From assembly GCF_042679325.1 (NCBI RefSeq), contig NZ_JBHTMJ010000012.1, positions 198,766 to 222,765 of the forward strand: a stretch of DNA of 24,000 bases. Reading direction: 5' to 3'. This document shows, one piece after another, positions 4,777-16,714 of the stretch; position 1 is the stretch's first letter, and every line of letters begins with the position of its first letter. Source of the DNA: Mucilaginibacter terrae. GTDB taxonomy: Bacteria > Bacteroidota > Bacteroidia > Sphingobacteriales > Sphingobacteriaceae. The notes beneath the pieces were generated by a model. The model was not told the DNA's origin. It was given only the letters and a program-made list of their open reading frames with translations, and made no database searches. The translations under genes were made by a program, and so were the position numbers.

Positions 4777-5199
4777 TCATGGTAAGAGACGTAACAATTT
4801 GTTTGTGTTAGCGAAGCCTTCCCACTTTTTAGCCAATGTACCGTCGCTATTAAAATATAATAAGGTGGGAGTTGCCCTTATCGGGTACAGGCCGTTTAGT
4901 TTTTTCCCTTCTTCGCTGTCTACATCAATGGCTACATTAATCAATTGGGCATTGTAAACATCGCCGATTTGCTTTTCGACTAATATTTCGTGTTCCATTT
5001 TTTTACAGGTAGGGCACCAACTGGCGTGAGCGAAAACAAATAAAGGTTTGCCCGCTGCTTTAGCGGTTGCCTTTGCCTCATTCAAGGATATCATTTTAAA
5101 TTGCACACCGCTTTCTGAAGTTAACAAAGGTTTGAATTTAGAACGGCAGGCACCGAACAACAGGCTAATGATAAGCAGCAATGCATATTTATTTTTCAT
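4777..5199 (-). CDS. Thioredoxin-fold lipoprotein (CxxC)
   Basis: It has a signal peptide with lipobox LFGAC and the active-site-like motif WCPTCKKM. It starts one nt after the stop of the upstream gene on the same strand. Confidence 0.85.
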   Translation of the reverse strand: MKNKYALLLIISLLFGACRSKFKPLLTSESGVQFKMISLNEAKATAKAAGKPLFVFAHASWCPTCKKMEHEILVEKQIGDVYNAQLINVAIDVDSEEGKKLNGLYPIRATPTLLYFNSDGTLAKKWEGFANTNKLLRLLP

Positions 5200-5200
5200 T

Positions 5201-6889
5201 TCAGGAAATGGTTAGGTTCACATATTGAGTATTATTTTTGATCATGTCCATACCTTGACGATAGGTCATGTGGGCCAGCCCGCGCTTTTTACGGTTAAGT
5301 TTGCTAATATGATATAAAATAGCCCAGTGCCGGATAATCTCTTTCCATGCAAAAAAGATGGAATGTTTAGGGTCGTACATGTGGGCAGGTTCGCTGGCGG
5401 CACCATTCACCTCGATGATCTTAAATTTTCCGGCGCAGAGTTCTGCCCAGCTATCATATTTAACATCCAACCGGCCATAGTAAAAACCCGGAATCTGCGC
5501 GCATACCGCATGTATATTTTTAACTAATTCGGACGTAACCTGCGGGCTGAGGTCAATAAATTTGGCACCGCGGCTATGATTGCCATACGGCGCAGGTAGG
5601 CAGGCCTCGCCGTATGGCAACACTTTTTGTAAAGCCAGGCCATACGCTTTTTTCAAGGCTGGTATTTGCAGTAGGTATCTCGGATTGGCAGCAAGCAATT
5701 CTTGCAAAGTTGCCTTTCCATCTCCCGTAACCATCATCAATTCTTTACCCACAACACCGGTAATTGTACCCGTACGGCTTCCTGGCCTACTAAAATAAAA
5801 AATCCCGGCTTCGTAAGGGTGGCTAATATACTCTTGTAACAGGAAATCAACTTTACTGTTGGTCGCATAATCGGCTAGGTCTTGTTTTGATTGAAGTAAT
5901 TTGACCTGCAAGCCGCGCTGCCCTATATCGGGCTTAGCAATCAAGGGCAATTTTATCCCAGGGTTTTCTATTGAATATCCTGCTTTAACCAATATAGTTT
6001 GCGGGCAATATTGCGCCGGTATATGCGCATAAATATCGTTTTTACTATCCATCGCGAATCCGCCGTTTTTCATTCCGGGGTTAGCCGTATTGAAAAAAAA
6101 TATTGCACGCGATTTAAGGCTGAGCCAAAACCAGTAAAACATCACCGGGATATAAATCATATAGTATGGCCAATACTCCCAATTAAATAGTTTGACCATG
6201 AAAATTCGTAAACTTAGCCATGGTATTTGCGATGTTGTTATTGCCAAATGTTGTACCTGCATCGTAGTCGATTTCAGGTCATCGTAGGTCATTATAATGG
6301 CTTGGCCAAATACAATCTTAACATGTGTAATGCTTACCGTCCCGATTGTTCCTGCCAAACGTTCGGTTTGGTGAAAATTGATGATTGACCTGCTATCTGA
6401 TAAGATAGTACTTTTAAACCGGTCTTTTTTTACAGTTTGAGCAGTTTCATCATAAAGCGTGGCCGAACTCCAAATATGCGATGAATGCTGATCAAGCGGC
6501 AAAGTATATTTTGCCGTGCCATCCCAGCGGCATTCGTAGAGCATCCCATTCATACAAATAATTAAAGTAAATGGCTCAATGTTGTTGAGATCAACCGAAT
6601 TAAAATAGGCAAGAGGCTTACTGGCAGCTAAAACGTTAAGCAACAACACACCCCGGCTAATGCGATAGGGCGGTTGAGCAAAATGCTTAACAAATGCGCC
6701 GTTTAACAGCACTGCCATATCTCCATTGGCTTTAGCTGCTATCCAGCTTCCGCTCATATCCGGGTCCTTAGGATAAAGCATGTCTTGGTACACCGAAGGT
6801 GATAATGCCGAACCCCTGTTGCAATGTTCATCACGGTTGGAGGTAAGGTAAAAGCCGTCTTGAGTGGGTATATAAGTTACTGTGCACAT
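5201..6889 (-). CDS. Fusion protein: NRDE/TANGO2-like domain (N-terminal Cys2), transmembrane linker, ATP-grasp ligase domain
   Basis: The N-terminus MCTVTYIPTQDGFYLTSNRDEH contains the literal NRDE motif. A hydrophobic stretch follows (WEYWPYYMIYIPVMFYWFWLSL). ATP-grasp motifs are LIAKPDIGQRGLQVKLL, LLQEYI, RLDVKYD and IIEVNGAAS. Confidence 0.75.
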   Translation of the reverse strand: MCTVTYIPTQDGFYLTSNRDEHCNRGSALSPSVYQDMLYPKDPDMSGSWIAAKANGDMAVLLNGAFVKHFAQPPYRISRGVLLLNVLAASKPLAYFNSVDLNNIEPFTLIICMNGMLYECRWDGTAKYTLPLDQHSSHIWSSATLYDETAQTVKKDRFKSTILSDSRSIINFHQTERLAGTIGTVSITHVKIVFGQAIIMTYDDLKSTTMQVQHLAITTSQIPWLSLRIFMVKLFNWEYWPYYMIYIPVMFYWFWLSLKSRAIFFFNTANPGMKNGGFAMDSKNDIYAHIPAQYCPQTILVKAGYSIENPGIKLPLIAKPDIGQRGLQVKLLQSKQDLADYATNSKVDFLLQEYISHPYEAGIFYFSRPGSRTGTITGVVGKELMMVTGDGKATLQELLAANPRYLLQIPALKKAYGLALQKVLPYGEACLPAPYGNHSRGAKFIDLSPQVTSELVKNIHAVCAQIPGFYYGRLDVKYDSWAELCAGKFKIIEVNGAASEPAHMYDPKHSIFFAWKEIIRHWAILYHISKLNRKKRGLAHMTYRQGMDMIKNNTQYVNLTIS

Positions 6890-7380
6890 GCCTGTCTAAA
6901 TTTTAAGGTAGATGCAGCGATACCGAACCCTGCCGGTATTGCGATACCAGCAACCGTGTTAACACCAATACGGATTAAGGCCAGATGATGCACAGTATGC
7001 TCCAGATTATAAATCAGTTCTCGATAATAATTGGTGGTTACACTGACAGAATTTGTTTCCGCATCGTCGTAGTTCACCAACAATGTAAGTGCCCTGTCTG
7101 GTCTATCTAAGCCTGTAATAATTTCCTTCAACTCACCAATGGCCACAAATTTACTGCTTTCTATCGCATGGTTTCTTTTGCGTTGGTCATAATCTACCTT
7201 ACCGCTATCGTAACCTTTATTAAGCTCTATATAAAACTCCAGGATATGGCGGGTATGTTCGCCAATGGTAGCACCAGATAAAACACTTACCGGAAGGATA
7301 AATTGATCATTGGTTAATAACTCAAGCACTTCGCCTAATTGCTCTAATAACTTACTGATGGGTTTTGTTAGCGGCATCAT
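6877..7380 (-). CDS. DinB-family (four-helix-bundle, metal-binding) protein
   Basis: Histidine motifs spaced as in the DinB/YfiT superfamily (GEHTRHILEF ... LEHTVHHLALI). The length is 167 aa. It overlaps the downstream NRDE/ATP-grasp gene by 13 nt. Confidence 0.8.
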   Translation of the reverse strand: MMPLTKPISKLLEQLGEVLELLTNDQFILPVSVLSGATIGEHTRHILEFYIELNKGYDSGKVDYDQRKRNHAIESSKFVAIGELKEIITGLDRPDRALTLLVNYDDAETNSVSVTTNYYRELIYNLEHTVHHLALIRIGVNTVAGIAIPAGFGIAASTLKFRQACAQ

Positions 7381-7384
7381 TATA

Positions 7385-7783
7385 CTACAGTTTAAAAGGA
7401 ATAAAACTGATCAGCTGTCTTCTTAACAGTAATAGTAAAGCCGTACAGCTACTAAAAACCAGCATAGCCAGGATAAATAGTTTGCCACCGTCGTTTTGCA
7501 CCACCAACCCTAATTGCGTAATATGGAAAAATATGGCTCCGGCCATTATACCCAAGCCTAAAAGTGCGCCTAAACTGGTGGTTTTGGGGATCAGCGTCAA
7601 TATAGATGCAATAAGTTCAAAGCAGCCGATACCAATTCGGCCCCAGGGTTCCATATTCAGTTTGGTGAAAATATAAACCGATTCTGGCGCGGCGGTAAAT
7701 TTAAAGAACAGGGTTTGCAACATAATTGCCGCAGCCACCAGGCGTAAGATCCAGGTAACTATGTTGAATGTTTTAGTTGTCAT
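7385..7783 (-). CDS. DoxX-family integral membrane protein
   Basis: 132 aa with four hydrophobic helices and a DoxX-like N-terminus (ILRLVAAAIMLQTLFFKF). It lies 4 nt upstream of the DinB gene. Confidence 0.75.
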   Translation of the reverse strand: MTTKTFNIVTWILRLVAAAIMLQTLFFKFTAAPESVYIFTKLNMEPWGRIGIGCFELIASILTLIPKTTSLGALLGLGIMAGAIFFHITQLGLVVQNDGGKLFILAMLVFSSCTALLLLLRRQLISFIPFKL

Positions 7784-7797
7784 GATGTTACGGCGTT

Positions 7798-8235
7798 TTA
7801 TTGAACTTTAACTGCAGGCCATTGCTGGTCAGCTTTAATAATCAAATTAGGTTGATCCTTCGTCCAAATTTCTTTTACTTTAGAATTGTAGTTGAAATAA
7901 AGCTTATCGTTTACAATGGTCCATGTATCGGTTTGTGTTGGGGCTTTGTGGCCTTCGGCAGTACCATAGGCACAGTAACCGCCATATTGTGGGGCGTATT
8001 TTTCAGGCGCTGCTTTAAAGGCGTTCATGTCTTCCGTGCTGGCAAACAACCAAGTGGCATTATTCCATTGATAGGACAGGCTGTCCGCGCCTTTAACGGC
8101 TTTGGATTGTTTAAAAAAAGCAACCGGGTCATAACCTTTGATAGCTTTACCGCCGCTGATGAATACTTCTGATTTTTGTGCACTGGCACTTAATGTAAAA
8201 ATGGACAGGGCTGCAATGATGAGTGTACGTTTCAT
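7798..8235 (-). CDS. Secreted YHS-domain protein (paralog 2)
   Basis: It has a signal peptide (SASAQK) and YHS-type motifs KGYDPVAFF and PQYGGYCAYG. Confidence 0.8.
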   Translation of the reverse strand: MKRTLIIAALSIFTLSASAQKSEVFISGGKAIKGYDPVAFFKQSKAVKGADSLSYQWNNATWLFASTEDMNAFKAAPEKYAPQYGGYCAYGTAEGHKAPTQTDTWTIVNDKLYFNYNSKVKEIWTKDQPNLIIKADQQWPAVKVQ

Positions 8236-8250
8236 ATTTATTTTTTGTGA

Positions 8251-8703
8251 TTAATTTTGATTAAATTTTGTCCAGTTAGCATCCGCTTTGGTTTTCAGGT
8301 TGCTTTCATCCTTATCCCAAGATTTTTTGGTGTTGTTAAAAAACTTGTTGTAAAACAGGTAAAGCTTGCCGTTCACCAGTTTGAAGGTTTCCGGGTCAAC
8401 AGCTACCTTAGTGCCGTTGGCTCCCATCGCGTAAGCACACCAACCGCCATATTGAGGTTGATACTTTGCGGGATTCGCTTTAAACAGGTCGCGGTTTTGG
8501 GTACTGGCAAAATGATAAGTTACGTCCTGATTTAATAGCGCAATTTCTTTTCGTCCTTCTACCGCTTTTTGTTGGGTGAAATAGGCAACTGGATCGTAAC
8601 CTGCCAGCGCCAGGCCTGATCCGTCCAGGTTAAATTGTTTTTGAGCCTGAACATTGGTCAGCGTGCCAACCATAAATAATAAAAAAAATAAGTATTTGTA
8701 CAT
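8251..8703 (-). CDS. Secreted YHS-domain protein (paralog 1)
   Basis: It has a signal peptide (NVQAQK) and motifs AGYDPVAYF and PQYGGWCAYA. It is clearly paralogous to 7798..8235. Confidence 0.8.
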   Translation of the reverse strand: MYKYLFFLLFMVGTLTNVQAQKQFNLDGSGLALAGYDPVAYFTQQKAVEGRKEIALLNQDVTYHFASTQNRDLFKANPAKYQPQYGGWCAYAMGANGTKVAVDPETFKLVNGKLYLFYNKFFNNTKKSWDKDESNLKTKADANWTKFNQN

Positions 8704-8729
8704 CGTGTTTCGGTGTTGTTTATTGCTTT

Positions 8730-8755
8730 GTCGCAGCTTACAACCAAACCTTACA
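8730..8755 (-). promoter_or_regulatory. Candidate ECF-type promoter of the YHS-YHS-DoxX-DinB-NRDE/ATP-grasp-Trx operon
   Basis: On the minus strand this reads TGTAAGG (8755-8749), then 15 nt, then CGAC (8733-8730). It lies 26 nt upstream of the ATG at 8703. The same bipartite motif occurs at four other start-proximal sites. Confidence 0.7.
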
Positions 8756-8766
8756 ATAAATTTATT

Positions 8767-8792
8767 TGTAAGGAAAGCTGTTGCGGCGCGAC
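8767..8792 (+). promoter_or_regulatory. Candidate ECF-type promoter of the DM13/beta-barrel operon
   Basis: TGTAAGG (8767-8773), then 15 nt, then CGAC (8789-8792), 28 nt upstream of the ATG at 8821. Confidence 0.7.
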
Positions 8793-8820
8793 CAAACCGT
8801 AAAACCTAATAATTGAGATC

Positions 8821-9255
8821 ATGAAACATTTAATTTATTTAAGCGCTGTAATTGCACTTGCAGTGAGTTTTACCGGCTGTAAAAAAGAAACTACCCCTAT
8901 GGTAGCGCTCAATGAAAAAGTGGACGTTACTATATCTAAACCCGAAACCAGCAGCAGCAGTTTCAGGAACGGTGCTTACGGCTCTGTAACCGGTACCGCC
9001 CGCGTATATGAAACGAATGGTAAATACCAATTAGCATTGGAAAACTTTACCAGCAGCAATGGGCCCGATCTTAAAGTGTATATCAGCAAAGAGCAGCAAC
9101 CTGTTAACTTTGTGAATTTGGGTTCCTTAAAATCTACCGCAGGCAACCAATTGTACGATATACCGGTTAGCATCAATGTTAAAGAATATACGTACGCGCT
9201 GATTTATTGCCAGCAATACAGTCATTTATTCGGTTATACCCAATTCACTTATTAA
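8821..9255 (+). CDS. DM13-domain lipoprotein
   Basis: It has a lipobox (SFTGC) and DM13-like core GTARVYETNGKYQLALENFTSSNGPDLKVYISKE. Confidence 0.75.
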   Translation: MKHLIYLSAVIALAVSFTGCKKETTPMVALNEKVDVTISKPETSSSSFRNGAYGSVTGTARVYETNGKYQLALENFTSSNGPDLKVYISKEQQPVNFVNLGSLKSTAGNQLYDIPVSINVKEYTYALIYCQQYSHLFGYTQFTY

Positions 9256-9257
9256 GT

Positions 9258-10172
9258 ATGAAAAAGATATACCTTACTTGCATTGCCCTGCTATGCACGG
9301 CTTACAGTTTTGCCCAAGGTTGCAGTGATGCAGGCTTTTGCAGCCTTAGCGTGCTAAAAAATAATATTACCGATTCGGCCAACCATACGTTAAGTTTCGG
9401 TTTAAATTATGGTGTTGGCAAAGAGCAAACCAATATTACCAATGCTTACGTGGAATATGGCACCAAGATTAATAGTCGTTTATCATTCCAATCCAAACTC
9501 ACCGCTACTTATGCTACCGGCTTTTTAGGCAGCGCTTTTGATATCGGTGATATTTATGGCACACTCAATTACTCCTTTAAAACAAAGGCTAATTACAGTA
9601 TCAATATCATCGGAGGCGTTAAAGTTCCGCTTACCTCGGGTAATCATAAAAATAAGGATGGTAAACCGCTACCGCTGGATTATCAGGCCAGCATAAGTAC
9701 GTATGATGCTATTGGTGGGATCAATTATATTGTTAACCACAGTTGGGAGTTTGATGCCGGGATACAAGTGCCGGTGATACAAGTTAATAAAAGTACCTAC
9801 TTCCCGGATGAATATAGCGACCCAAGGGCAAAAGAATTTGCGCCAACCAATAATTTCAAGCGCAAAAGTGATATACTTGGCCGCATTGGCTATTATATTC
9901 AGTTTTCGGCATCAAACATCACCCTAAAACCAAGCTTGCTGGGTATCTACCATTTAGGAACTGATACTTATGAGGACCGCTTTGGTCAAATAACTGCGAT
10001 AACCGGATCAGATGGGTTTACGCTGAACGGCAGTATAGTTGGCACTAAAAAGTTCAATAATGGAAATAGCCTGGAAGTGCTTGTTGCTACGCCGTTTATT
10101 GTACGCAAAGTACGACCCGATGGATTGACCCGCGTAGGCGTGATCAATTTGCAATACACCATAGCCTTTTAA
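9258..10172 (+). CDS. Secreted hypothetical protein, probable outer-membrane beta-barrel
   Basis: I chose the start at MKKIYLTCIALL (9258), two nt after the DM13 stop. It has a signal peptide (SFAQG), alternating beta-strand-like patterns and a C-terminal aromatic residue (YTIAF). The mature N-terminus carries GCSDAGFCS. I recognise no family. Confidence 0.55.
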   Translation: MKKIYLTCIALLCTAYSFAQGCSDAGFCSLSVLKNNITDSANHTLSFGLNYGVGKEQTNITNAYVEYGTKINSRLSFQSKLTATYATGFLGSAFDIGDIYGTLNYSFKTKANYSINIIGGVKVPLTSGNHKNKDGKPLPLDYQASISTYDAIGGINYIVNHSWEFDAGIQVPVIQVNKSTYFPDEYSDPRAKEFAPTNNFKRKSDILGRIGYYIQFSASNITLKPSLLGIYHLGTDTYEDRFGQITAITGSDGFTLNGSIVGTKKFNNGNSLEVLVATPFIVRKVRPDGLTRVGVINLQYTIAF

Positions 10173-10277
10173 AACTTTAAACTAAATAAACTGGTGAATA
10201 TTAAAACACAAGGTAGGTAAACATATCTGCATGCGTTTAAATCACAGCCCATAGTCTATATTCGGGGCCACCATTGC

Positions 10278-11060
10278 TTACAATCCCGAATAATAATCAT
10301 AACCCTCCCTGGCCCAGTAATCGGGCGGGCGGGTGTTACTGAAAGTCATAGAGCCGATACGCTTTAAATTTTTTATGCCATACTTAACCGGTATAATCAG
10401 TCGTAAAGGCGCTCCATGATTATGTGGGATAGGCCGGCCATTCATTTCATAGGCTAATATTGTTTGGGGATGAATGGCGCTGGGCATGTCCAGCCCAACC
10501 TGGTATTCCCCATCAGGGGTTATTAAGCCCATGTATTGCATTTTAATCTCTTCAGCCAGCCCAAAGTATTCAATAAAGTCAATCATTTTTAGGCCACCCC
10601 AGTATTGGATCTGGTCCCAGCCCTCCACACATTTGAAATCATAAACGATCTCTGTTTTTGGCAAAGCTTTGATCTGATCGATAGTAATGTGCACAACCTC
10701 GCCGCCTGATTTTTTTACCTCCATCTTCCAGCCGGCAATGTCAATGTTACTTTCCAAGCCAATGTTGCTGTTTTGCCGTACGTTTTTGGCCGCCATTGCT
10801 TTTGGATAAGTTTTAACTAAATGATTATTGCTAAAAAAATTTCGGAAAAAGAGTTCCGTTTTATTCAACGCACGACGTAGCGGCACTTGCGCCCCACCTG
10901 TTATCCCGGTTGCTTCTTCAGGCGAAGTGTACAGTATTCGCCAGCCTTTATAAGCCGCAGCCGAACTCAATGCAAAAACACTCAAGGATATAAAGTTGCG
11001 CCGCTTTATCTTTTGATCAATGGTGAGGGGTTTTTTAACTTTCTTTAGGTTGTTCATCAT
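10278..11060 (-). CDS. Periplasmic molybdopterin-dependent oxidoreductase (sulfite-oxidase fold, YedY/MsrP-like)
   Basis: It has a Tat-like signal (KRRNFISLSVFALSSAAA) and the motif FKCVEGWDQ, which resembles the Mo-ligand cysteine context of YedY-type enzymes. It overlaps the upstream cytochrome b gene by 26 nt. Confidence 0.85.
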   Translation of the reverse strand: MMNNLKKVKKPLTIDQKIKRRNFISLSVFALSSAAAYKGWRILYTSPEEATGITGGAQVPLRRALNKTELFFRNFFSNNHLVKTYPKAMAAKNVRQNSNIGLESNIDIAGWKMEVKKSGGEVVHITIDQIKALPKTEIVYDFKCVEGWDQIQYWGGLKMIDFIEYFGLAEEIKMQYMGLITPDGEYQVGLDMPSAIHPQTILAYEMNGRPIPHNHGAPLRLIIPVKYGIKNLKRIGSMTFSNTRPPDYWAREGYDYYSGL

Positions 11061-11736
11061 CCTTTGATATGTTTAAGGTTTTTGGGGTATTAACTACTTC
11101 GAAGCCTGAGATAACCGACCAGAAGTTTTTCCAGCCAGCCAATATTACCTGTATGATATGGATCAGGAAAAAGATAACATACCCAATTGTTAATATAAAG
11201 TGGATAATACGGGAGGCATGATAGCCCCCGCATAGCCAGGTAATAGTTGCAAATTGTACAGGCTTATAAATAGCAAGCCCGGTTACCAGTGAACCAAGCC
11301 CCATCAAAACTATAGCCGTGTAGGCAATGCGCTGTGCCGCGTTGTACTTATTTTGTGGCGGAAGCATTTTACGGATATGCAGGTCATGCAGCAGCACCAA
11401 CCAGGCCTCTTTAAATGACTTCCTATGCGGTACAAGTTCTCGCCATGAACCGGATATAATTGTGTAGGCTACATAGACCAAACCGTTAAGCGCAAAAAAC
11501 CACATAAATAAAAAGTGGAACGCCATGCCCTTGGCCAAATGCGCAGGTATATCCAACGCTTTGTTAAACCACTCCGGGAAAAACTTGAAATAGGTATGCC
11601 CGAATAGCGAAATGGTGTACACATCGTTACTCCAGTAAATGAGCATGCCGCTCCAAATCATAATGCTAAGCAGCGGAAAGTTGACCCAATGTGTCCAGCG
11701 CATCAGCACGGAATGCTTTTCTTTGATCGTTTTCAT
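11035..11736 (-). CDS. Membrane cytochrome b (Ni/Fe-hydrogenase / thiosulfate-reductase b-type cytochrome family)
   Basis: It begins RWTHWVNFPLLSIMIWSGMLIY and has several hydrophobic helices with conserved His residues (HFLFMWF, HFILTIGYVIFFLIHI). Confidence 0.85.
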   Translation of the reverse strand: MKTIKEKHSVLMRWTHWVNFPLLSIMIWSGMLIYWSNDVYTISLFGHTYFKFFPEWFNKALDIPAHLAKGMAFHFLFMWFFALNGLVYVAYTIISGSWRELVPHRKSFKEAWLVLLHDLHIRKMLPPQNKYNAAQRIAYTAIVLMGLGSLVTGLAIYKPVQFATITWLCGGYHASRIIHFILTIGYVIFFLIHIIQVILAGWKNFWSVISGFEVVNTPKTLNISKDDEQPKES

Positions 11737-11738
11737 CG

Positions 11739-12518
11739 TTACAGCGAAATTGGAAAGCCCGTGCGCGCGGCCGCATTAATTTTGCCTGTTTTACTATCCT
11801 GCAAAAAAGCAATCAACTCGAAATTTTTTGCCGAAAAATTAGGTGGTAATTTTATGTCATTTTCGCCCAAACTGGCGCTTACAGAAATAGTTTTAATATT
11901 AGTAACGATCTGCACGTGCGACAAACTGCGGCCGCGGTTCTCGCCGGCTTTCACTACCGTGGTTGCCTGCTTTTGTACCAACGCTAAAACTATGATGCTG
12001 CCCGATGCGGCATCGGTATGATATTTAATAGTAGCGGAGTTGTTATTGATCTTAACATCGCTCAGGGATAGCTTTACTGTAACGCTTTGTTTTAAACCCA
12101 TGCCGATTGCATTTCGCAGAGTGCCTTCCTGCGACCCAACAAATTCTGTTTGCCCATTAACAATTACCTGCGGCGTGTAAACCGAACTTAAATTCAGCCA
12201 GTTAGCATAGTTGTTTTGCCTGCGTGAGTAATCGGGACTGCTAAACACATCTTTCCAGCCCAGGCGGTTCCAGTAATCCACGTGGTAAGTCAGGATATAA
12301 ACAGGCTTACCTGTTACCTCTTGCTCTATTTTAGCCACCACAGCATCCGCCGGGGGGCAACTGGAGCAACCTTCAGAGGTAAATAACTCCACTACGGCAA
12401 ATCCTTCATCAGCAGCGGCAACTGGCTTTATTTTGTAACTGGTTTGAATAAATGCAAGAGAACTTAAACCTGCAATCTCCATGAATGCCAGCAATAAAAA
12501 TATTTTTATGGTTTTCAT
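11739..12518 (-). CDS. Secreted DUF1223-family thioredoxin-fold protein
   Basis: It has a signal peptide and the hallmark VELFTSEGCSSCPPAD. It lies 2 nt upstream of the cytochrome b gene. Confidence 0.8.
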   Translation of the reverse strand: MKTIKIFLLLAFMEIAGLSSLAFIQTSYKIKPVAAADEGFAVVELFTSEGCSSCPPADAVVAKIEQEVTGKPVYILTYHVDYWNRLGWKDVFSSPDYSRRQNNYANWLNLSSVYTPQVIVNGQTEFVGSQEGTLRNAIGMGLKQSVTVKLSLSDVKINNNSATIKYHTDAASGSIIVLALVQKQATTVVKAGENRGRSLSHVQIVTNIKTISVSASLGENDIKLPPNFSAKNFELIAFLQDSKTGKINAAARTGFPISL

Positions 12519-12539
12519 ATCGGGTATTTTACCTGTTTA

Positions 12540-12565
12540 GTCGGCTTTAAATCAGTATCCTTACA
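12540..12565 (-). promoter_or_regulatory. Candidate ECF-type promoter of the DUF1223/cytochrome b/Mo-oxidoreductase operon
   Basis: On the minus strand this reads TGTAAGG (12565-12559), then 15 nt, then CGAC (12543-12540), 21 nt upstream of the ATG at 12518. A second TGTAAG half-copy lies just upstream. Confidence 0.7.
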
Positions 12566-12595
12566 AATACTTACAGTAAATTAATGATAAATAAC

Positions 12596-12621
12596 TGTAA
12601 GGGTTATGGCATTTTAACTAC
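12596..12621 (+). promoter_or_regulatory. Candidate autoregulatory ECF-type promoter of the sigma/anti-sigma operon
   Basis: TGTAAGG (12596-12602), then 15 nt, then CTAC (12618-12621, one mismatch to CGAC), 18 nt upstream of the ATG at 12640. Confidence 0.6.
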
Positions 12622-12639
12622 TAAAGGTTGTTTACACTA

Positions 12640-13224
12640 ATGGACGATATTAAAACACCTCCCGCCGTTCAGCAGCTTAACCCCAAAAACTGGGTAAAAG
12701 CCTATGCTGATTATTTATACCTATACGCTATTAGCCGCGTAGGCGACGAAGAGCAGGCACGCGACTTGGTGCAGGAAACTTTTTTAGCCGGCCTGCAAAG
12801 TATGCACAAGTTTGCCAACAAGAGTTCCGAACGTACCTGGTTAACAGCCATACTTAAAAATAAAATTTATGATGTGTACCGGAAAAAAGCCAGCGGATTT
12901 AAAACAGAAGAGATGATAAATATAACAGGTGAAGAGCCGGATTACTTTCAAGAAGACGGGCACTGGAAGAAGGATTATGAACCACGGCAATTTGGCGTAG
13001 ATGATTTTGACCCTTTGGTGCATAAAGAACTAAACCAGGCCCTGCAAAAATGCCTGAAAAAACTACCTGCTTTATGGCTGTCTGTTTTTACGATGAAACA
13101 CATGGATGATGAAGCTACTGATTTTGTTTGTGCCGAGCTGCGATTAAGCCAGGCCAATTTTTGGGTAATTATTCACCGGGCGAAACTTAACCTGCGGGCC
13201 TGTCTGCAAAAAAACTGGATGTAA
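12640..13224 (+). CDS. ECF-family RNA polymerase sigma-70 factor
   Basis: It has region 2-like (ARDLVQETFLAGL) and region 4-like (EATDFVCAELRLSQANFWVIIHRAKLNLRACL) segments and is about 195 aa long. The track start at 12628 is a TTG codon, so I prefer the ATG at 12640. Confidence 0.9.
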   Translation: MDDIKTPPAVQQLNPKNWVKAYADYLYLYAISRVGDEEQARDLVQETFLAGLQSMHKFANKSSERTWLTAILKNKIYDVYRKKASGFKTEEMINITGEEPDYFQEDGHWKKDYEPRQFGVDDFDPLVHKELNQALQKCLKKLPALWLSVFTMKHMDDEATDFVCAELRLSQANFWVIIHRAKLNLRACLQKNWM

Positions 13225-13225
13225 G

Positions 13226-13501
13226 ATGAACGACTTTAAAAAAATAATTTATAACTGCCGAAAGGCGACCTACCTGATCGATAAAAGATTAATAGGCAGG
13301 ATAACCTTTCGCGAGACAGTTGAGCTGCGTATGCACCTTTTTGGCTGCAATGTTTGCCGTATTTACATGTGCCAAAGCCAAAAGATCAACGAGATGATCA
13401 GGCAAATGCTAAAGTCAGATCACCAGCCAGAAATAAAGTTAGACGAGAATTTTAAAGATGCCCTACAAGTAAAAATTGAGAACCAATTAAATAAAAATTG
13501 A
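13226..13501 (+). CDS. Small soluble zinc-binding anti-sigma factor (ZAS type)
   Basis: The ATG lies 1 nt after the sigma gene stop. It has Cys11 and His37-x3-Cys41-x2-Cys44 (HLFGCNVC). It has no hydrophobic transmembrane segment and is 91 aa long. Confidence 0.75.
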   Translation: MNDFKKIIYNCRKATYLIDKRLIGRITFRETVELRMHLFGCNVCRIYMCQSQKINEMIRQMLKSDHQPEIKLDENFKDALQVKIENQLNKN

Positions 13502-13506
13502 CTTTT

Positions 13507-13532
13507 TGTAAGGTTTGGTAATGATTAGCGAC
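13507..13532 (+). promoter_or_regulatory. Candidate ECF-type promoter of the Met/Lys-rich mini-protein gene
   Basis: TGTAAGG (13507-13513), then 15 nt, then CGAC (13529-13532), 27 nt upstream of the ATG at 13560. It shares the extended identity TTGTAAGGTTTGGT...CGACAAAG with the YHS promoter. Confidence 0.7.
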
Positions 13533-13559
13533 AAAGGGGCAAACACTAAATAAAAAAAC

Positions 13560-13787
13560 ATGAAAACTTACAAATCACTGATCTCGGGTTTATTATTAAC
13601 AGGCGCTTTATTTCTTGCGTTCAATGTTAACGCTGCTCCTTTTCAAGACAAAATGTCTAAGATGAAAAAAGACTCTATGGAGATGAAAAAAAAGGAGATG
13701 AAAAAAATGGACAAGATGAAGATGGACAAGAAGAAGATGGACAAGAAAAAAATGAAAAAAGATACCTCGAAAATGGGTAAAATGTAA
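13560..13787 (+). CDS. Secreted Met/Lys-rich repeat mini-protein (MxKDx-like pentapeptide repeats)
   Basis: It has a signal peptide (FNVNA|AP). The predicted 50-aa mature part contains 12 Met and 21 Lys by my count, in units such as MKKDS, MKKKE, MDKKK and MKKDT. Confidence 0.7.
   Translation: MKTYKSLISGLLLTGALFLAFNVNAAPFQDKMSKMKKDSMEMKKKEMKKMDKMKMDKKKMDKKKMKKDTSKMGKM
13653..13784 (+). repeat. Purine-rich low-complexity coding repeat (ATG/AAR/GAY units)
   Basis: It contains imperfect tandem units such as atggacaagaagaag / atggacaagaaaaaa. These encode the Met/Lys-rich tail. Confidence 0.6.
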
Positions 13788-14741
13788 TATGCAGTTGATT
13801 GCGAGGTTATTATTGCTTTCCATACGAAGAGGGGCTTTTACCCTTTTTTATATCAGGCAAACTAATGCTATGCTATCGAGATCAAATATGCCTAATCGAT
13901 TCAGATCTGATCGTTGGTATGGAGCACAATTTCCAGGTAATTACCTGCATTTAATATAATAACTGGCTGCCTGCGGTGCAGGTACAAGTACCCGTCAAAT
14001 TAAAGGACCATAGGTAATTAGAAATTAAAAGGCCTCAAATTAAAATTTGAGGCCTTTTAATTGTTTTTGTTATATGCGGAGAGTTAGGGTTCAGAACCTA
14101 AGCTCCTATGCTTTGATTAACAGTGCTTTGCATTTTGAAAAGTTCCCTACTTTACGAATTACGCAAATAGCAAGTTACTCTAATTGTTAAATTGAATATA
14201 CTGTATTTAACGATTCTCATAAAGATTTTCTATTCTTGAAATGAAGTTACTTTCTTGTAAGTATAAACCATCCCAGGTGATATTGAGGATGTGGAATTAT
14301 TATTTAAAAATTAAGTGGCGATAACTTAAGAGCTCTAATATAGATTTATCTTAAAGGTTTTATTATGGTGTTCGCAATTTGAATAAAAGCATTTACCTTA
14401 CCGCTAAACCGTATTATATTGAGTTTTTTTTAAAAGCTTTATCGATGCGCATAAATATTTATAAGCAGTTCGAATTCGTTAAGTTTCAATGCTTTGTTGT
14501 GGTCTTTAATCCAGCTTATATCCTTAAAAGTGGCAGGTGGTATAATAATGGACAAAAACATATTTTGTGGTAATAAGCACTAAGCAGCCTAATCCCAATT
14601 CATCTTTTATCTTCTCAGGGATAATTCCATTACATAATTTATTGTATTAAACTTAGTCTTAATGATTATAAAATTATCTTAAAAAGAAAATTTTGATAAA
14701 AACCAAACTTACACTTCGGCGTTACTTACATAAAACAACAC
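13788..14741. other. ORF-poor AT-rich spacer at the left border of the glycosyltransferase block
   Basis: About 0.95 kb without a convincing gene. One hand-counted 60-nt line (14581-14640) was about 32% GC. It contains the strong hairpin at 14027-14058. Confidence 0.6.
14027..14058. terminator. Strong, potentially bidirectional intrinsic terminator hairpin
   Basis: AAAAGGCCTCAAAT-taaa-ATTTGAGGCCTTTT forms a perfect 14-bp stem with a 4-nt loop. It has A-run and T-run flanks and is followed by ttgtttttgtt. Confidence 0.7.
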
Positions 14742-15896: not shown

Positions 15897-16714
15897 TGAA
15901 AAATGTATCGGTCGTGATTCTTGTCAGGGAGCGCCATTCCGCCCTTTGCCAAACTATGCTGGGTTTGGCAAAGGGTCAGCACTTACCGGGAGAACTTATC
16001 GTAGTGAACATGAATCAGATTCCGGGCGAGCTGCCCGATATGCCTTTCCCTGTAAGGCAGATCAGCATTTGCTCCGTTGCTATGCTTCCACTTGCTGAAG
16101 CAAGAAATGAGGGTATGGCTGCCAGCTTTTATAAACGGATAGTTTTCCTTGATGTAGATTGCATTCCGGCACCGAATATGCTCACGATTTACGGAGAACA
16201 GTGGGACGATAACCAGTTGCTTTCTGGCCAGGTACGTTATTTGCCGGCCCTTGCTGCCGGAAAGGCTTATGACCAAGAAAACCTTCATGCTCACAGCATT
16301 GCCGACCCGTTAAGGTCAGGGCTGGCTGAACTCCCTTATGAACTTTTTTGGTCTTTAAATTTTGGGTCCAGTAAAACTTTGTTTGCCTTAATCGGCGGCT
16401 TTGATGTGGGTTTTCAAGGCTATGGTGCAGAAGATACCGACTTTGCCTTCGCTGCGCGTCAAAAAAACGTCCCTGTCAAGAATATTCAGGCAACTGCTTA
16501 CCACCAGTACCATGAGAGTTACTCACCGCCGTTAAATCATCTTTCGGATATCATTGCTAATGCAAATCGCTTTTACATCAAATGGAAAAAATGGCCAATG
16601 GAAGGATGGCTATTGAAATTTGAAGAAGCAGGATTGATTTCCCGGACGGGAACCAACATACAATTATTGCGCAAGCCTACCCATGTAGAGATCCAATTAG
16701 CCTTAAAGATCTGA
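15896..16714 (+). CDS. GT-A fold glycosyltransferase (GT2 / galactosyltransferase-like)
   Basis: It has VSVVILVRERHSAL, the DxD motif FLDVDCIP, and GYGAEDTDFAF, which resembles the galactosyltransferase C-terminal region. Its start overlaps the upstream stop (TAATG). Confidence 0.8.
   Translation: MKNVSVVILVRERHSALCQTMLGLAKGQHLPGELIVVNMNQIPGELPDMPFPVRQISICSVAMLPLAEARNEGMAASFYKRIVFLDVDCIPAPNMLTIYGEQWDDNQLLSGQVRYLPALAAGKAYDQENLHAHSIADPLRSGLAELPYELFWSLNFGSSKTLFALIGGFDVGFQGYGAEDTDFAFAARQKNVPVKNIQATAYHQYHESYSPPLNHLSDIIANANRFYIKWKKWPMEGWLLKFEEAGLISRTGTNIQLLRKPTHVEIQLALKI

Follow-up and report, generated by a model that had tools for sequence, protein, structure and literature searches.

The closest described relatives of the system reported here are the regulons of two extracytoplasmic function (ECF) sigma factors, Neisseria sigmaE and Haemophilus influenzae RpoE2. 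The system lies in a 24-kb stretch of the Mucilaginibacter terrae genome (24,000 nucleotides of contig NZ_JBHTMJ010000012.1; hereafter the window, to whose positions all coordinates refer), in which five promoter-like sites surround an ECF sigma gene and the anti-sigma gene that follows it. In Neisseria, the gene of sigmaE (Ecf, NMB2144) is followed directly by that of MseR (NMB2145), a small cytoplasmic zinc-binding anti-sigma (ZAS) protein with the arrangement Cys-X25-His-X3-Cys-X2-Cys, whose Cys4, His30, Cys34, and Cys37 match Cys11, His37, Cys41, and Cys44 of RsrA (PMC2893595). The system is autoregulated, and its small regulon combines DoxX with methionine sulfoxide repair (PMC2893595, PMC3240639), the members being DoxX, three hypothetical proteins, sigmaE, MseR, and MsrAB (PMC3240639). 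Working from the rpoE operon together with msrA/msrB, Hopman et al. derived the consensus of the promoter (PMC2893595): a −35 box GTMAGBWTT (GTAAGGTT in meningococci), 12–13 nt, and a −10 box CGTCTAAH, with the transcription start 6 nt further on (PMC2893595). In H. influenzae, RpoE2 belongs to ECF group 13, for which small cytoplasmic anti-sigma factors are typical; its gene is co-transcribed with that of the small cytoplasmic ZAS protein HrsE (67 aa). HOCl and H2O2 induce RpoE2, which controls periplasmic methionine sulfoxide reductases, including msrAB, and a DoxX cluster (PMC7907618). Group ECF13 has been merged into ECF293, where RpoE of N. meningitidis is listed (PMC7826278, PMC8999054). 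The window resembles both systems in a gene for a small cytoplasmic ZAS protein next to the sigma gene and in having DoxX and methionine repair functions behind the motif, here a DoxX gene and a YedY/MsrP-like molybdenum (Mo) enzyme; no MsrA or MsrB gene was found in the window itself. Autoregulation, probable here, is a further feature in common with Neisseria. Our comparison indicates that the five sites very probably serve as promoters for the ECF sigma factor of the window (12640–13224), whose compact regulon would comprise 14 genes in five units, and that this regulon is probably the Bacteroidota counterpart of the ECF13/ECF293 systems represented by Neisseria sigmaE–MseR and Haemophilus RpoE2–HrsE.

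The five sites share the bipartite pattern TGTAAGG-N15-CGAC, and all are oriented toward a start codon 18–28 nt away. On the minus strand, P1 (TGTAAGGTTTGGTTGTAAGCTGCGAC; 8730–8755) is an exact match 26 nt upstream of the first YHS gene, and divergent from it on the plus strand is P2 (TGTAAGGAAAGCTGTTGCGGCGCGAC; 8767–8792), an exact match 28 nt upstream of the DM13 gene. P3 (TGTAAGGATACTGATTTAAAGCCGAC; 12540–12565, minus strand), also exact, lies 21 nt upstream of the DUF1223 gene. P4 (TGTAAGGGTTATGGCATTTTAACTAC; 12596–12621, plus strand) is a TGTAAGG-N15-CTAC variant 18 nt ahead of the start codon of the sigma gene (ATG at 12640), a position that implies autoregulation. The exact match P5 (TGTAAGGTTTGGTAATGATTAGCGAC; 13507–13532, plus strand) begins 6 nt past the stop codon of the anti-sigma gene and lies 27 nt upstream of the gene of a Met-rich peptide. 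Of the five sites, four extend to TTGTAAGG, and TTGTAAGGTTTGGT...CGACAAAG is common to two of them. An earlier reading made from the letters of this DNA alone, referred to below as the sequence-only reading, had described four exact sites and the CTAC variant ahead of the sigma gene, and the motif counts confirmed this; its start-codon distances of 28, 26, 21, 18, and 27 nt and the shared extensions all proved correct when the intergenic regions were read. It had also reported one further TGTAAGG. A sixth copy does exist, but at 16051–16057 and not at 16061–16067.

The motif counts, a scan with a position weight matrix (PWM), and an Rfam scan were applied to the 24-kb window. The exact pattern TGTAAGG-N15-CGAC occurs four times there, against a mean of 0.04 in dinucleotide-preserving shuffles, which never contained four copies, and TGTAAGG alone occurs six times. 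The PWM was trained solely on sites from other genomes and included none from the window. It scored P5 as the strongest of the five sites (30.2 bits), followed by P3 (28.5 bits), P1 (27.7 bits), P2 (24.2 bits), and P4, the weakest (18.2 bits); no other position in the window scored above 8.1 bits, and the maxima in 20 shuffled windows were ≤ 11.3 bits. A scan for the sigma-70 consensus showed no enrichment in the window (30 found, 29 expected), so this generic scan was uninformative for the window, and the Rfam scan gave no matches there, so the intergenic regions are not explained by a known RNA element.

To place the sites in a wider context, we retrieved 80 genomic loci via the sigma protein alone. 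In 20 of these, from Mucilaginibacter, Pedobacter, Chitinophaga, Puia, and Ginsengibacter, the sigma protein was ≥ 50% identical to that of the window, and the motif stood ahead of the same gene families beside orthologous sigma genes in about 20 genomes of Sphingobacteriales and Chitinophagales. In the ≥ 50% loci, the exact motif was found immediately upstream of the sigma gene, of the divergent DUF1223–cytochrome b–Mo enzyme operon, and of the Met-rich gene after the anti-sigma gene, and also upstream of YHS–YHS–DoxX–DinB–NRDE/ATP-grasp operons, of DM13, and of the genes of a lipoprotein MsrB, a DUF417 protein, and a DoxX protein. Conservation ahead of orthologous operons, which the sequence-only reading had expected of a true regulon, was therefore observed. 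Counterparts were found for P1 ahead of YHS operons (L011, L014, and L049), for P2 ahead of DM13 (L019 and L182), for P3 with DUF1223 (L001–L010 and 8–9 metagenome loci), and for P5 ahead of Met-rich genes (nine genome loci and about 15 metagenome loci). Eighteen of the 20 loci had a site upstream of the sigma gene, and these counterparts of P4 mostly carry the canonical CGAC.

The consensus from 68 aligned sites was tTGTAAGGwTT-N11-cCGACtAA. Several of its conserved positions had not been used in selecting the sites: the T at −1, the WTT after the −35 box, the C before CGAC, and the AA at +27/+28 (two bases past CGAC), which was present in 90% of the 68 sites. Written as GTAAGGwTT, 12 nt, CGACtAA, this is almost the same as the promoter of Neisseria sigmaE (GTMAGBWTT, 12–13 nt, CGTCTAAH). 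A single base differs in the −10 box (CGAC versus CGTC), and we therefore take it to be the same promoter; more distant relatives of the window sigma factor use CGTC, and some use TGTCAGG.

The divergent arrangement of the sites raises another explanation, namely, that the TGTAAGG boxes are the half-sites of an operator bound by a dimeric transcription factor and that CGAC is incidental. A perfect 7-bp inverted repeat, CCTTACA-N11-TGTAAGG, is indeed present at 8749–8773, and a second, looser inverted pair at 12559–12602. However, no inverted partner accompanies the site at 13507, each site is oriented toward a gene start, and CGAC and the following tAA are conserved as well as the −35 box is. 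Moreover, the distance between divergent boxes varies in orthologs from 17 to > 100 nt, whereas the spacing between TGTAAGG and CGAC is invariant. We find the operator scarcely credible, and it is this variable distance between the boxes, as opposed to the fixed −35/−10 spacing, that rules it out for the inverted TGTAAGG pairs.

We also searched public metagenome contigs with the pattern TTGTAAGGWTT-N12-CGACTAA without regard to the genes present, and classified the downstream open reading frames (ORFs) of the 120 resulting loci by Pfam. Sigma-70 region 2 (Sigma70_r2) was encoded in 21 of the 120 downstream ORFs, zf-HC2 in 13, DUF1223 in nine, MsrA in six, DoxX in four, and MsrB in three; Met-rich secreted peptides accounted for about 15 of the 120. 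Single cases included an MsrP-like enzyme, YHS, DM13, DsbD, FMN reductases, and HvfA-like peptides. In the contigs scanned, the motif was thus rare, close to start codons, and associated with one coherent functional class, rather than frequent and remote from gene starts, the outcome that the sequence-only reading had named as contrary to its claim. Taken together, the comparison with other genomes and the Neisseria sigmaE consensus strongly support its proposal of an autoregulated ECF regulon, whose promoters would consist of a −35-like box, a fixed spacer, and a −10 box containing CG.

It is conceivable that the sites are promoters of another ECF sigma factor in the genome and that their adjacency to this one is coincidental. 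The window sigma factor is tied to the sites by comparison, and genomes of Bacteroidetes encode a mean of 22.5 ECF sigma factors (PMC7826278). Nevertheless, the sigma genes behind 21 of the 120 gene-blind matches mostly belong to the family of the window sigma factor, the motif agrees with that derived for Neisseria sigmaE, a related factor, and it accompanies this sigma family in about 20 genomes with orthologs as well as in distant phyla. In view of this joint occurrence across phyla, we consider recognition by another ECF sigma factor very improbable.

Among the metagenome loci, one of proteobacterial type (L103, 4738–8106) has the motif ahead of an operon encoding a 59-aa MseR-like ZAS protein (C4/H30/C34/C37), an HvfA precursor of a metallophore that is a ribosomally synthesized and post-translationally modified peptide (RiPP), DUF692, DUF2063, and DoxX, and its sigma gene is divergent from this operon. 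Similar proteobacterial-type loci with ZAS proteins of 59–64 aa were L108, L134, L141, L160, L161, and L177.

The ECF sigma factor of the window (12640–13224, plus strand; 194 aa; Pfam Sigma70_r2) shares 100% identity with a protein of Mucilaginibacter terrae. Its top NCBIfam match was TIGR02943, at 137 bits and thus under the cut-off of 162 bits. We used TIGR02943 and NF008892 as a proxy for membership in ECF13/ECF293; TIGR02943 was linked to ECF13 because the gene content of L103 matches the published Neisseria operon. The L103 sigma factor, of the proteobacterial type, exceeds the cut-offs of both models, and the window sigma factor is 32% identical to it over its full length (E = 3e-31). 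Based on this bridge and on TIGR02943 as the top match, we place the window sigma factor as a probable divergent Bacteroidota branch of the TIGR02943 family. A sequence search of solved structures with the sigma protein gave only generic ECF matches.

The anti-sigma gene (13226–13501, plus strand) begins 2 nt past the sigma stop codon and encodes a 91-aa protein of the cytoplasmic ZAS type (zf-HC2; NF052368 antisigmaE), with the geometry C11-X25-H37-X3-C41-X2-C44 and no hydrophobic or transmembrane segment. A Cys 26 residues before the His and the HxxxCxxC motif were present in 113 of 114 sigma-adjacent homologs, all of which were 57–123 aa long and none of which had a transmembrane segment. 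The numbering of the four residues is identical to that in the cytoplasmic ZAS protein RsrA of Streptomyces coelicolor (Cys11, His37, Cys41, and Cys44), and the sigmaR–RsrA system, a switch for thiol-oxidative stress, resembles the window further in its autoregulation and in a regulon rich in thiol-redox functions. In contrast, sigmaR belongs to ECF12 and uses another promoter, its regulon is cytoplasmic whereas that of the window is mostly extracytoplasmic, and no sequence similarity to RsrA beyond the motif was detected, a sequence search of the PDB with the window anti-sigma protein giving nothing at E ≤ 1. Bacteroides EcfO was considered as a counterpart and rejected as a different type, one whose anti-sigma factor is dual membrane-spanning.

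The targets set the window apart from the systems with which it shares its promoter. In Neisseria they are MsrAB and the DUF692/DUF2063 peptide-modification genes, whereas in the window they are the YedY/MsrP-like Mo enzyme with its cytochrome b, DUF1223, YHS, DM13 with a channel, and the Met-rich peptide. The Haemophilus system differs in its very limited autoregulation and in its targets MsrAB and MtsZ, and no Met-rich peptide, DUF1223, YHS, or DM13 genes have been reported for it. A third system, SigF/NrsF–YedY1Z1–MrpX of Azospira suillum, which defends against hypochlorite, is like the window in having a divergent ECF sigma gene beside an operon for a periplasmic Mo enzyme of the sulfite-oxidase family and its membrane heme partner, a secreted, highly charged Met-rich peptide, and a compact local regulon (PMC4436054, PMC8315932); Brucella BcrS/AbcS is a further example. 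The Met-rich peptides are alike in composition and context, with a Met content of 24% in the window and 20% in MrpX (PMC4436054). However, the Azospira system has a SigF-type sigma factor, the membrane anti-sigma factor NrsF, another promoter motif, and YedZ/MsrQ as its heme partner, as opposed to the TIGR02943-like sigma factor, the soluble ZAS protein, and the PF01292 cytochrome b561 of the window. The resemblance is one of function, not of membership. The sequence-only reading knew of no description of this gene combination as a unit. Our literature searches for ECF together with DUF1223, the motif string, or TIGR02943, and for the combination of DoxX, YHS, DinB, TANGO2, ATP-grasp, and DUF1223, found nothing relevant, and the Bacteroidota target set is indeed unusual; nevertheless, the sigma type, the ZAS protein, the promoter, and the link to Msr and DoxX are known (PMC2893595, PMC3240639, PMC7907618), as is the pairing of a Mo enzyme with a Met-rich peptide, from Azospira (PMC4436054).

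The observations thus establish five conserved sites, the families of the genes behind them, the ZAS geometry of the anti-sigma protein, and the agreement of the motif with the one published for Neisseria. From them we infer that the sigma factor reads the sites; what the signal is, and what each product does biochemically, are inferences of the same kind in the following model. At rest, the 91-aa cytoplasmic zinc-binding anti-sigma protein would keep the sigma factor inactive through Cys11/His37/Cys41/Cys44. Oxidants that react with thiols, in the likeliest case hypochlorite-like or peroxide stress, would oxidize the anti-sigma cysteines and free the sigma factor, which with RNA polymerase would initiate transcription a few nt 3' of CGACtAA at all five promoters. 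The weakest site would yield more sigma and anti-sigma protein as feedback, and the stronger sites would drive the other four units. The secreted Met-rich peptide would act as a sacrificial oxidant sink, and the periplasmic YedY/MsrP-like Mo enzyme, fed by the membrane cytochrome b, would re-reduce methionine sulfoxide. The exported or membrane redox proteins, i.e., DUF1223, the two YHS proteins, DoxX, the thioredoxin-like lipoprotein, and DM13 with the outer-membrane channel, would make up a further output, and the remaining products would serve to protect the thiols and methionines of the envelope or to repair them. A cytoplasmic or membrane pair, made up of the protein with the DinB fold and the NRDE/ATP-grasp fusion, would possibly act in thiol-dependent detoxification. 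We slightly favor oxidants as the signal. That an RsrA-like cytoplasmic thiol switch in soil Bacteroidota drives a self-contained envelope defense, in which the Met-rich sink is combined with a YedY-like reductase working on cytochrome b561 rather than MsrQ, is a tentative proposal, and the addition of DUF1223, YHS, DM13 with a channel carrying an invariant Cys pair, and the DinB-fold and NRDE/ATP-grasp pair to this defense is put forward equally cautiously.

Several points weigh against the promoter assignment and this model. The site ahead of the sigma gene, P4, is the weakest (CTAC, 18 bits); the sigma protein falls under the trusted cut-off of TIGR02943 (137 versus 162 bits), and its assignment to an ECF group is indirect; and the start sites and sigma dependence of the five units are deduced from the DNA. 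The partner of the Mo enzyme is PF01292 and not of the MsrQ/YedZ type, and the Mo enzyme scores under the MsrP cut-off, so the reduction of methionine sulfoxide is a plausible activity of this enzyme. Not every ZAS protein is redox-sensitive. Moreover, oxidants did not induce sigmaE in N. meningitidis (PMC2893595), so the ZAS motif is no guarantee of redox sensing.

The signal is also the point at which metal stress, especially copper, has to be weighed. In this alternative, the promoters and the sigma factor are the same, but metal accounts for both signal and function, the regulon forming a periplasmic metal buffer in which the Met-rich peptide and the YHS proteins bind Cu(I). Related proteobacterial loci have the motif ahead of HvfA-type RiPP metallophore operons (NF050137), the YHS domain has a reputation for metal association, and motifs rich in Met are classical ligands of Cu(I). 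Caulobacter SigF, which belongs to an analogous system, has been described as responsive to heavy metals, a further point in favor of metal. SigF has also been cited as responsive to reactive oxygen species (PMC4436054). On the other hand, the gene-blind scan yielded chiefly MsrA, MsrB, an MsrP-like enzyme, and proteins of the thioredoxin fold, whose function is the repair of oxidized Met and Cys; the Met-rich peptide has no His or Cys; instead of a periplasmic metal sensor, the anti-sigma factor is a thiol/zinc protein of the cytoplasm; and the inducers of RpoE2 in Haemophilus are HOCl and H2O2 (PMC7907618). We consider a metal buffer rather unlikely, and Cu(I) binding by the Met-rich peptide and the YHS proteins similarly doubtful, but copper stress is a serious candidate as an alternative or additional signal, and the metal and oxidant readings are mutually compatible.

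The ORF map showed five tightly packed units with 14 genes: six minus-strand genes from 8703 to 4777 (unit 1), two plus-strand genes from 8821 to 10172 (unit 2), three minus-strand genes from 12518 to 10278 (unit 3), the sigma and anti-sigma genes from 12640 to 13501 (unit 4), and the Met-rich gene from 13560 to 13787 (unit 5). The sequence-only reading had counted 15 genes, but the genes that it listed and the ORF map both give 14. Judged by sequence, a signal peptide is present in eight of the products, and membrane proteins number three. Pfam or NCBIfam backed the names that had been given to the two YHS proteins, DoxX, thioredoxin, DM13, DUF1223, the Mo-oxidoreductase, cytochrome b (b561), sigma, and anti-sigma (zf-HC2). 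For the NRDE/ATP-grasp fusion, Pfam backed TANGO2/NRDE and the RimK ATP-grasp match was weak, and the names "DinB" and "beta-barrel," for which there was no Pfam match, were confirmed by structure prediction and fold search.

The Met-rich gene (13560–13787, plus strand) encodes a secreted 75-aa peptide with a signal peptide and a weak match to TIGR02953 (penta_MxKDx). Its mature part of about 50 aa consists of 24% Met and 58% charged residues, with MxKDx-like repeats. A hairpin followed by a U-run is predicted 3' of this gene (13826–13855, plus strand); its z-score is weak (−1.28), and a role as a terminator is only suggestive. Further downstream, about 900 bp of the window (13860–14740) contain no ORF of ≥ 60 aa save a 64-aa ORF starting with TTG, and an 18-bp perfect hairpin at 14023–14062 (AATTAAAAGGCCTCAAATT...AATTTGAGGCCTTTTAATT), with no Rfam match, has the look of a bidirectional terminator.

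All three genes of unit 3 lie on the minus strand. The first (11739–12518) encodes a DUF1223 protein (PF06764, E = 2e-56) with a signal peptide and a CSSCPP motif. It is followed by the gene of a membrane cytochrome b561 (11035–11736; PF01292, Ni_hydr_CYTB), which is in conserved synteny and is presumed to be the electron donor of the Mo enzyme; searches of Pfam and NCBIfam with this partner gave no MsrQ-type match. The third gene (10278–11060) encodes the sulfite-oxidase-family, YedY/MsrP-like Mo enzyme (PF00174), with a twin-arginine-like KRRNF signal at its N-terminus. Its top NCBIfam match, NF003767 (MsrP), scored 85 bits, under the cut-off of 207, and its closest solved structure was E. 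coli YedY (1XDQ, E = 9e-16). The gene order DUF1223–cytochrome b–Mo enzyme is kept in L001–L008 and L021.

Unit 1, also on the minus strand, begins with the genes of two exported YHS-domain proteins (8251–8703 and 7798–8235), both assigned by Pfam and to the YHS domain-containing (seleno)protein family NF041384. Both proteins have a QYGG[WY]CAY motif. To judge from its name, NF041384 includes some selenoproteins, which is a hint at a residue with redox activity. Next come the genes of a DoxX-family membrane protein (7385–7783; Pfam), which is also found 3' of the motif in L071, L116, and other loci, and of a 167-aa protein (6877–7380) with no Pfam match, whose AlphaFold2 (AF2) model (pLDDT 88.9) has a predicted DinB/YfiT fold: nearly all of its top 20 PDB matches were DinB/YfiT proteins, with TM-scores of 0.55–0.70, and His42, His45, His131, and His132 are conserved. 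The fifth gene (5201–6889) encodes a 562-aa fusion of an N-terminal TANGO2/NRDE domain starting with Met-Cys (TANGO2, E = 1e-9), a membrane segment, and a C-terminal ATP-grasp-like domain (RimK, E = 0.018); the L014 ortholog meets the RimK cut-off. The fusion gene accompanies YHS–DoxX–DinB in L011, L014, L019, L037, and L049. The unit ends with the gene of a thioredoxin-like lipoprotein with a WCPTC motif (4777–5199; Thioredoxin_7, Thioredoxin_2, and related families), which was not found at the end of the YHS operon in related loci. In L014 (4743), a gene of the CxxC-containing DUF1223 family comes after the NRDE/ATP-grasp gene, where the window has the thioredoxin-like gene, so exported thiol-redox proteins seem interchangeable at that position.

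Unit 2, on the plus strand, consists of the genes of a DM13-domain lipoprotein (8821–9255; PF10517, E = 5e-15) and of a 304-aa protein (9258–10172) with no Pfam match. AF2 and Foldseek indicate that the latter is an outer-membrane beta-barrel channel of the FapF/COG4313 type: its model (pLDDT 84.5) matched FapF (5o68, E = 1e-10) and the COG4313 channel 4rl8 with TM-scores of 0.65–0.75. Profile searches of solved structures with the barrel and DinB-like proteins gave nothing meaningful, so the fold search was needed for both. The barrel family has > 1,200 members and no Pfam model. Directly past the signal peptide, the protein carries the invariant N-terminal sequence QGCSDAGFCS (residues 20–29; 9315–9344), and both of its cysteines are kept in 43 of 43 aligned barrel homologs.

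The more distant sigma homologs had a different site arrangement. Of the 60 loci with a sigma protein < 50% identical to that of the window, two had a site upstream of the sigma gene and 40 had one inside it; no internal site was found in the 20 closer loci, nor in the window's own sigma gene by the PWM scan. The internal site scores highly and lies within the last 170 nt of the sigma gene, 5' of the anti-sigma gene (examples among L022–L080 are L033 at 10448–10480, L037 at 10463, and L026 at 10448). It overlaps the region-4 codons for C-K/Q-E ... P/S/A/T-S/T-N (TGT AAG GAA ... NCG TCT/ACT AAY). The codon before Ser/Thr-Asn was NCG in all 17 sequences with P, S, A, or T at this position, from 19 captured distant sequences, whereas the third base of the corresponding codon varies freely in the close group. 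This difference points to DNA-level selection and suggests an internal, sigma-dependent promoter in the distant homologs. About 60–130 nt upstream of the sigma gene, several loci of Flavobacteriia and Ferruginibacter (L033, L034, and L036) have a palindrome TGTAAA-N1-3-TTACA, which occupies the position of the ECF promoter in the close orthologs and may be the site of another regulator.

The results would provide a clean regulon for an ECF sigma factor of soil Bacteroidota, a phylum with about 20 such factors per genome, few of which are characterized, and would extend the oxidant-response paradigm of Neisseria and Haemophilus sigmaE–MseR to another phylum. The inferred co-regulation with methionine sulfoxide repair would give a functional context to DUF1223, YHS (seleno)protein-like, DM13, FapF-like channel, DinB-fold, and NRDE/ATP-grasp proteins, and the Bacteroidota-specific target set would place these poorly understood families in the context of oxidant or metal defense. 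The motif is short and highly specific, and can be used to find members of the regulon in genomes of these lineages. If the proposal of an envelope defense is true, the motif gives at least five uncharacterized families one role, in defense against hypochlorite-like oxidants or copper, and an MrpX-type methionine sink would have been recruited independently by two unrelated ECF groups.

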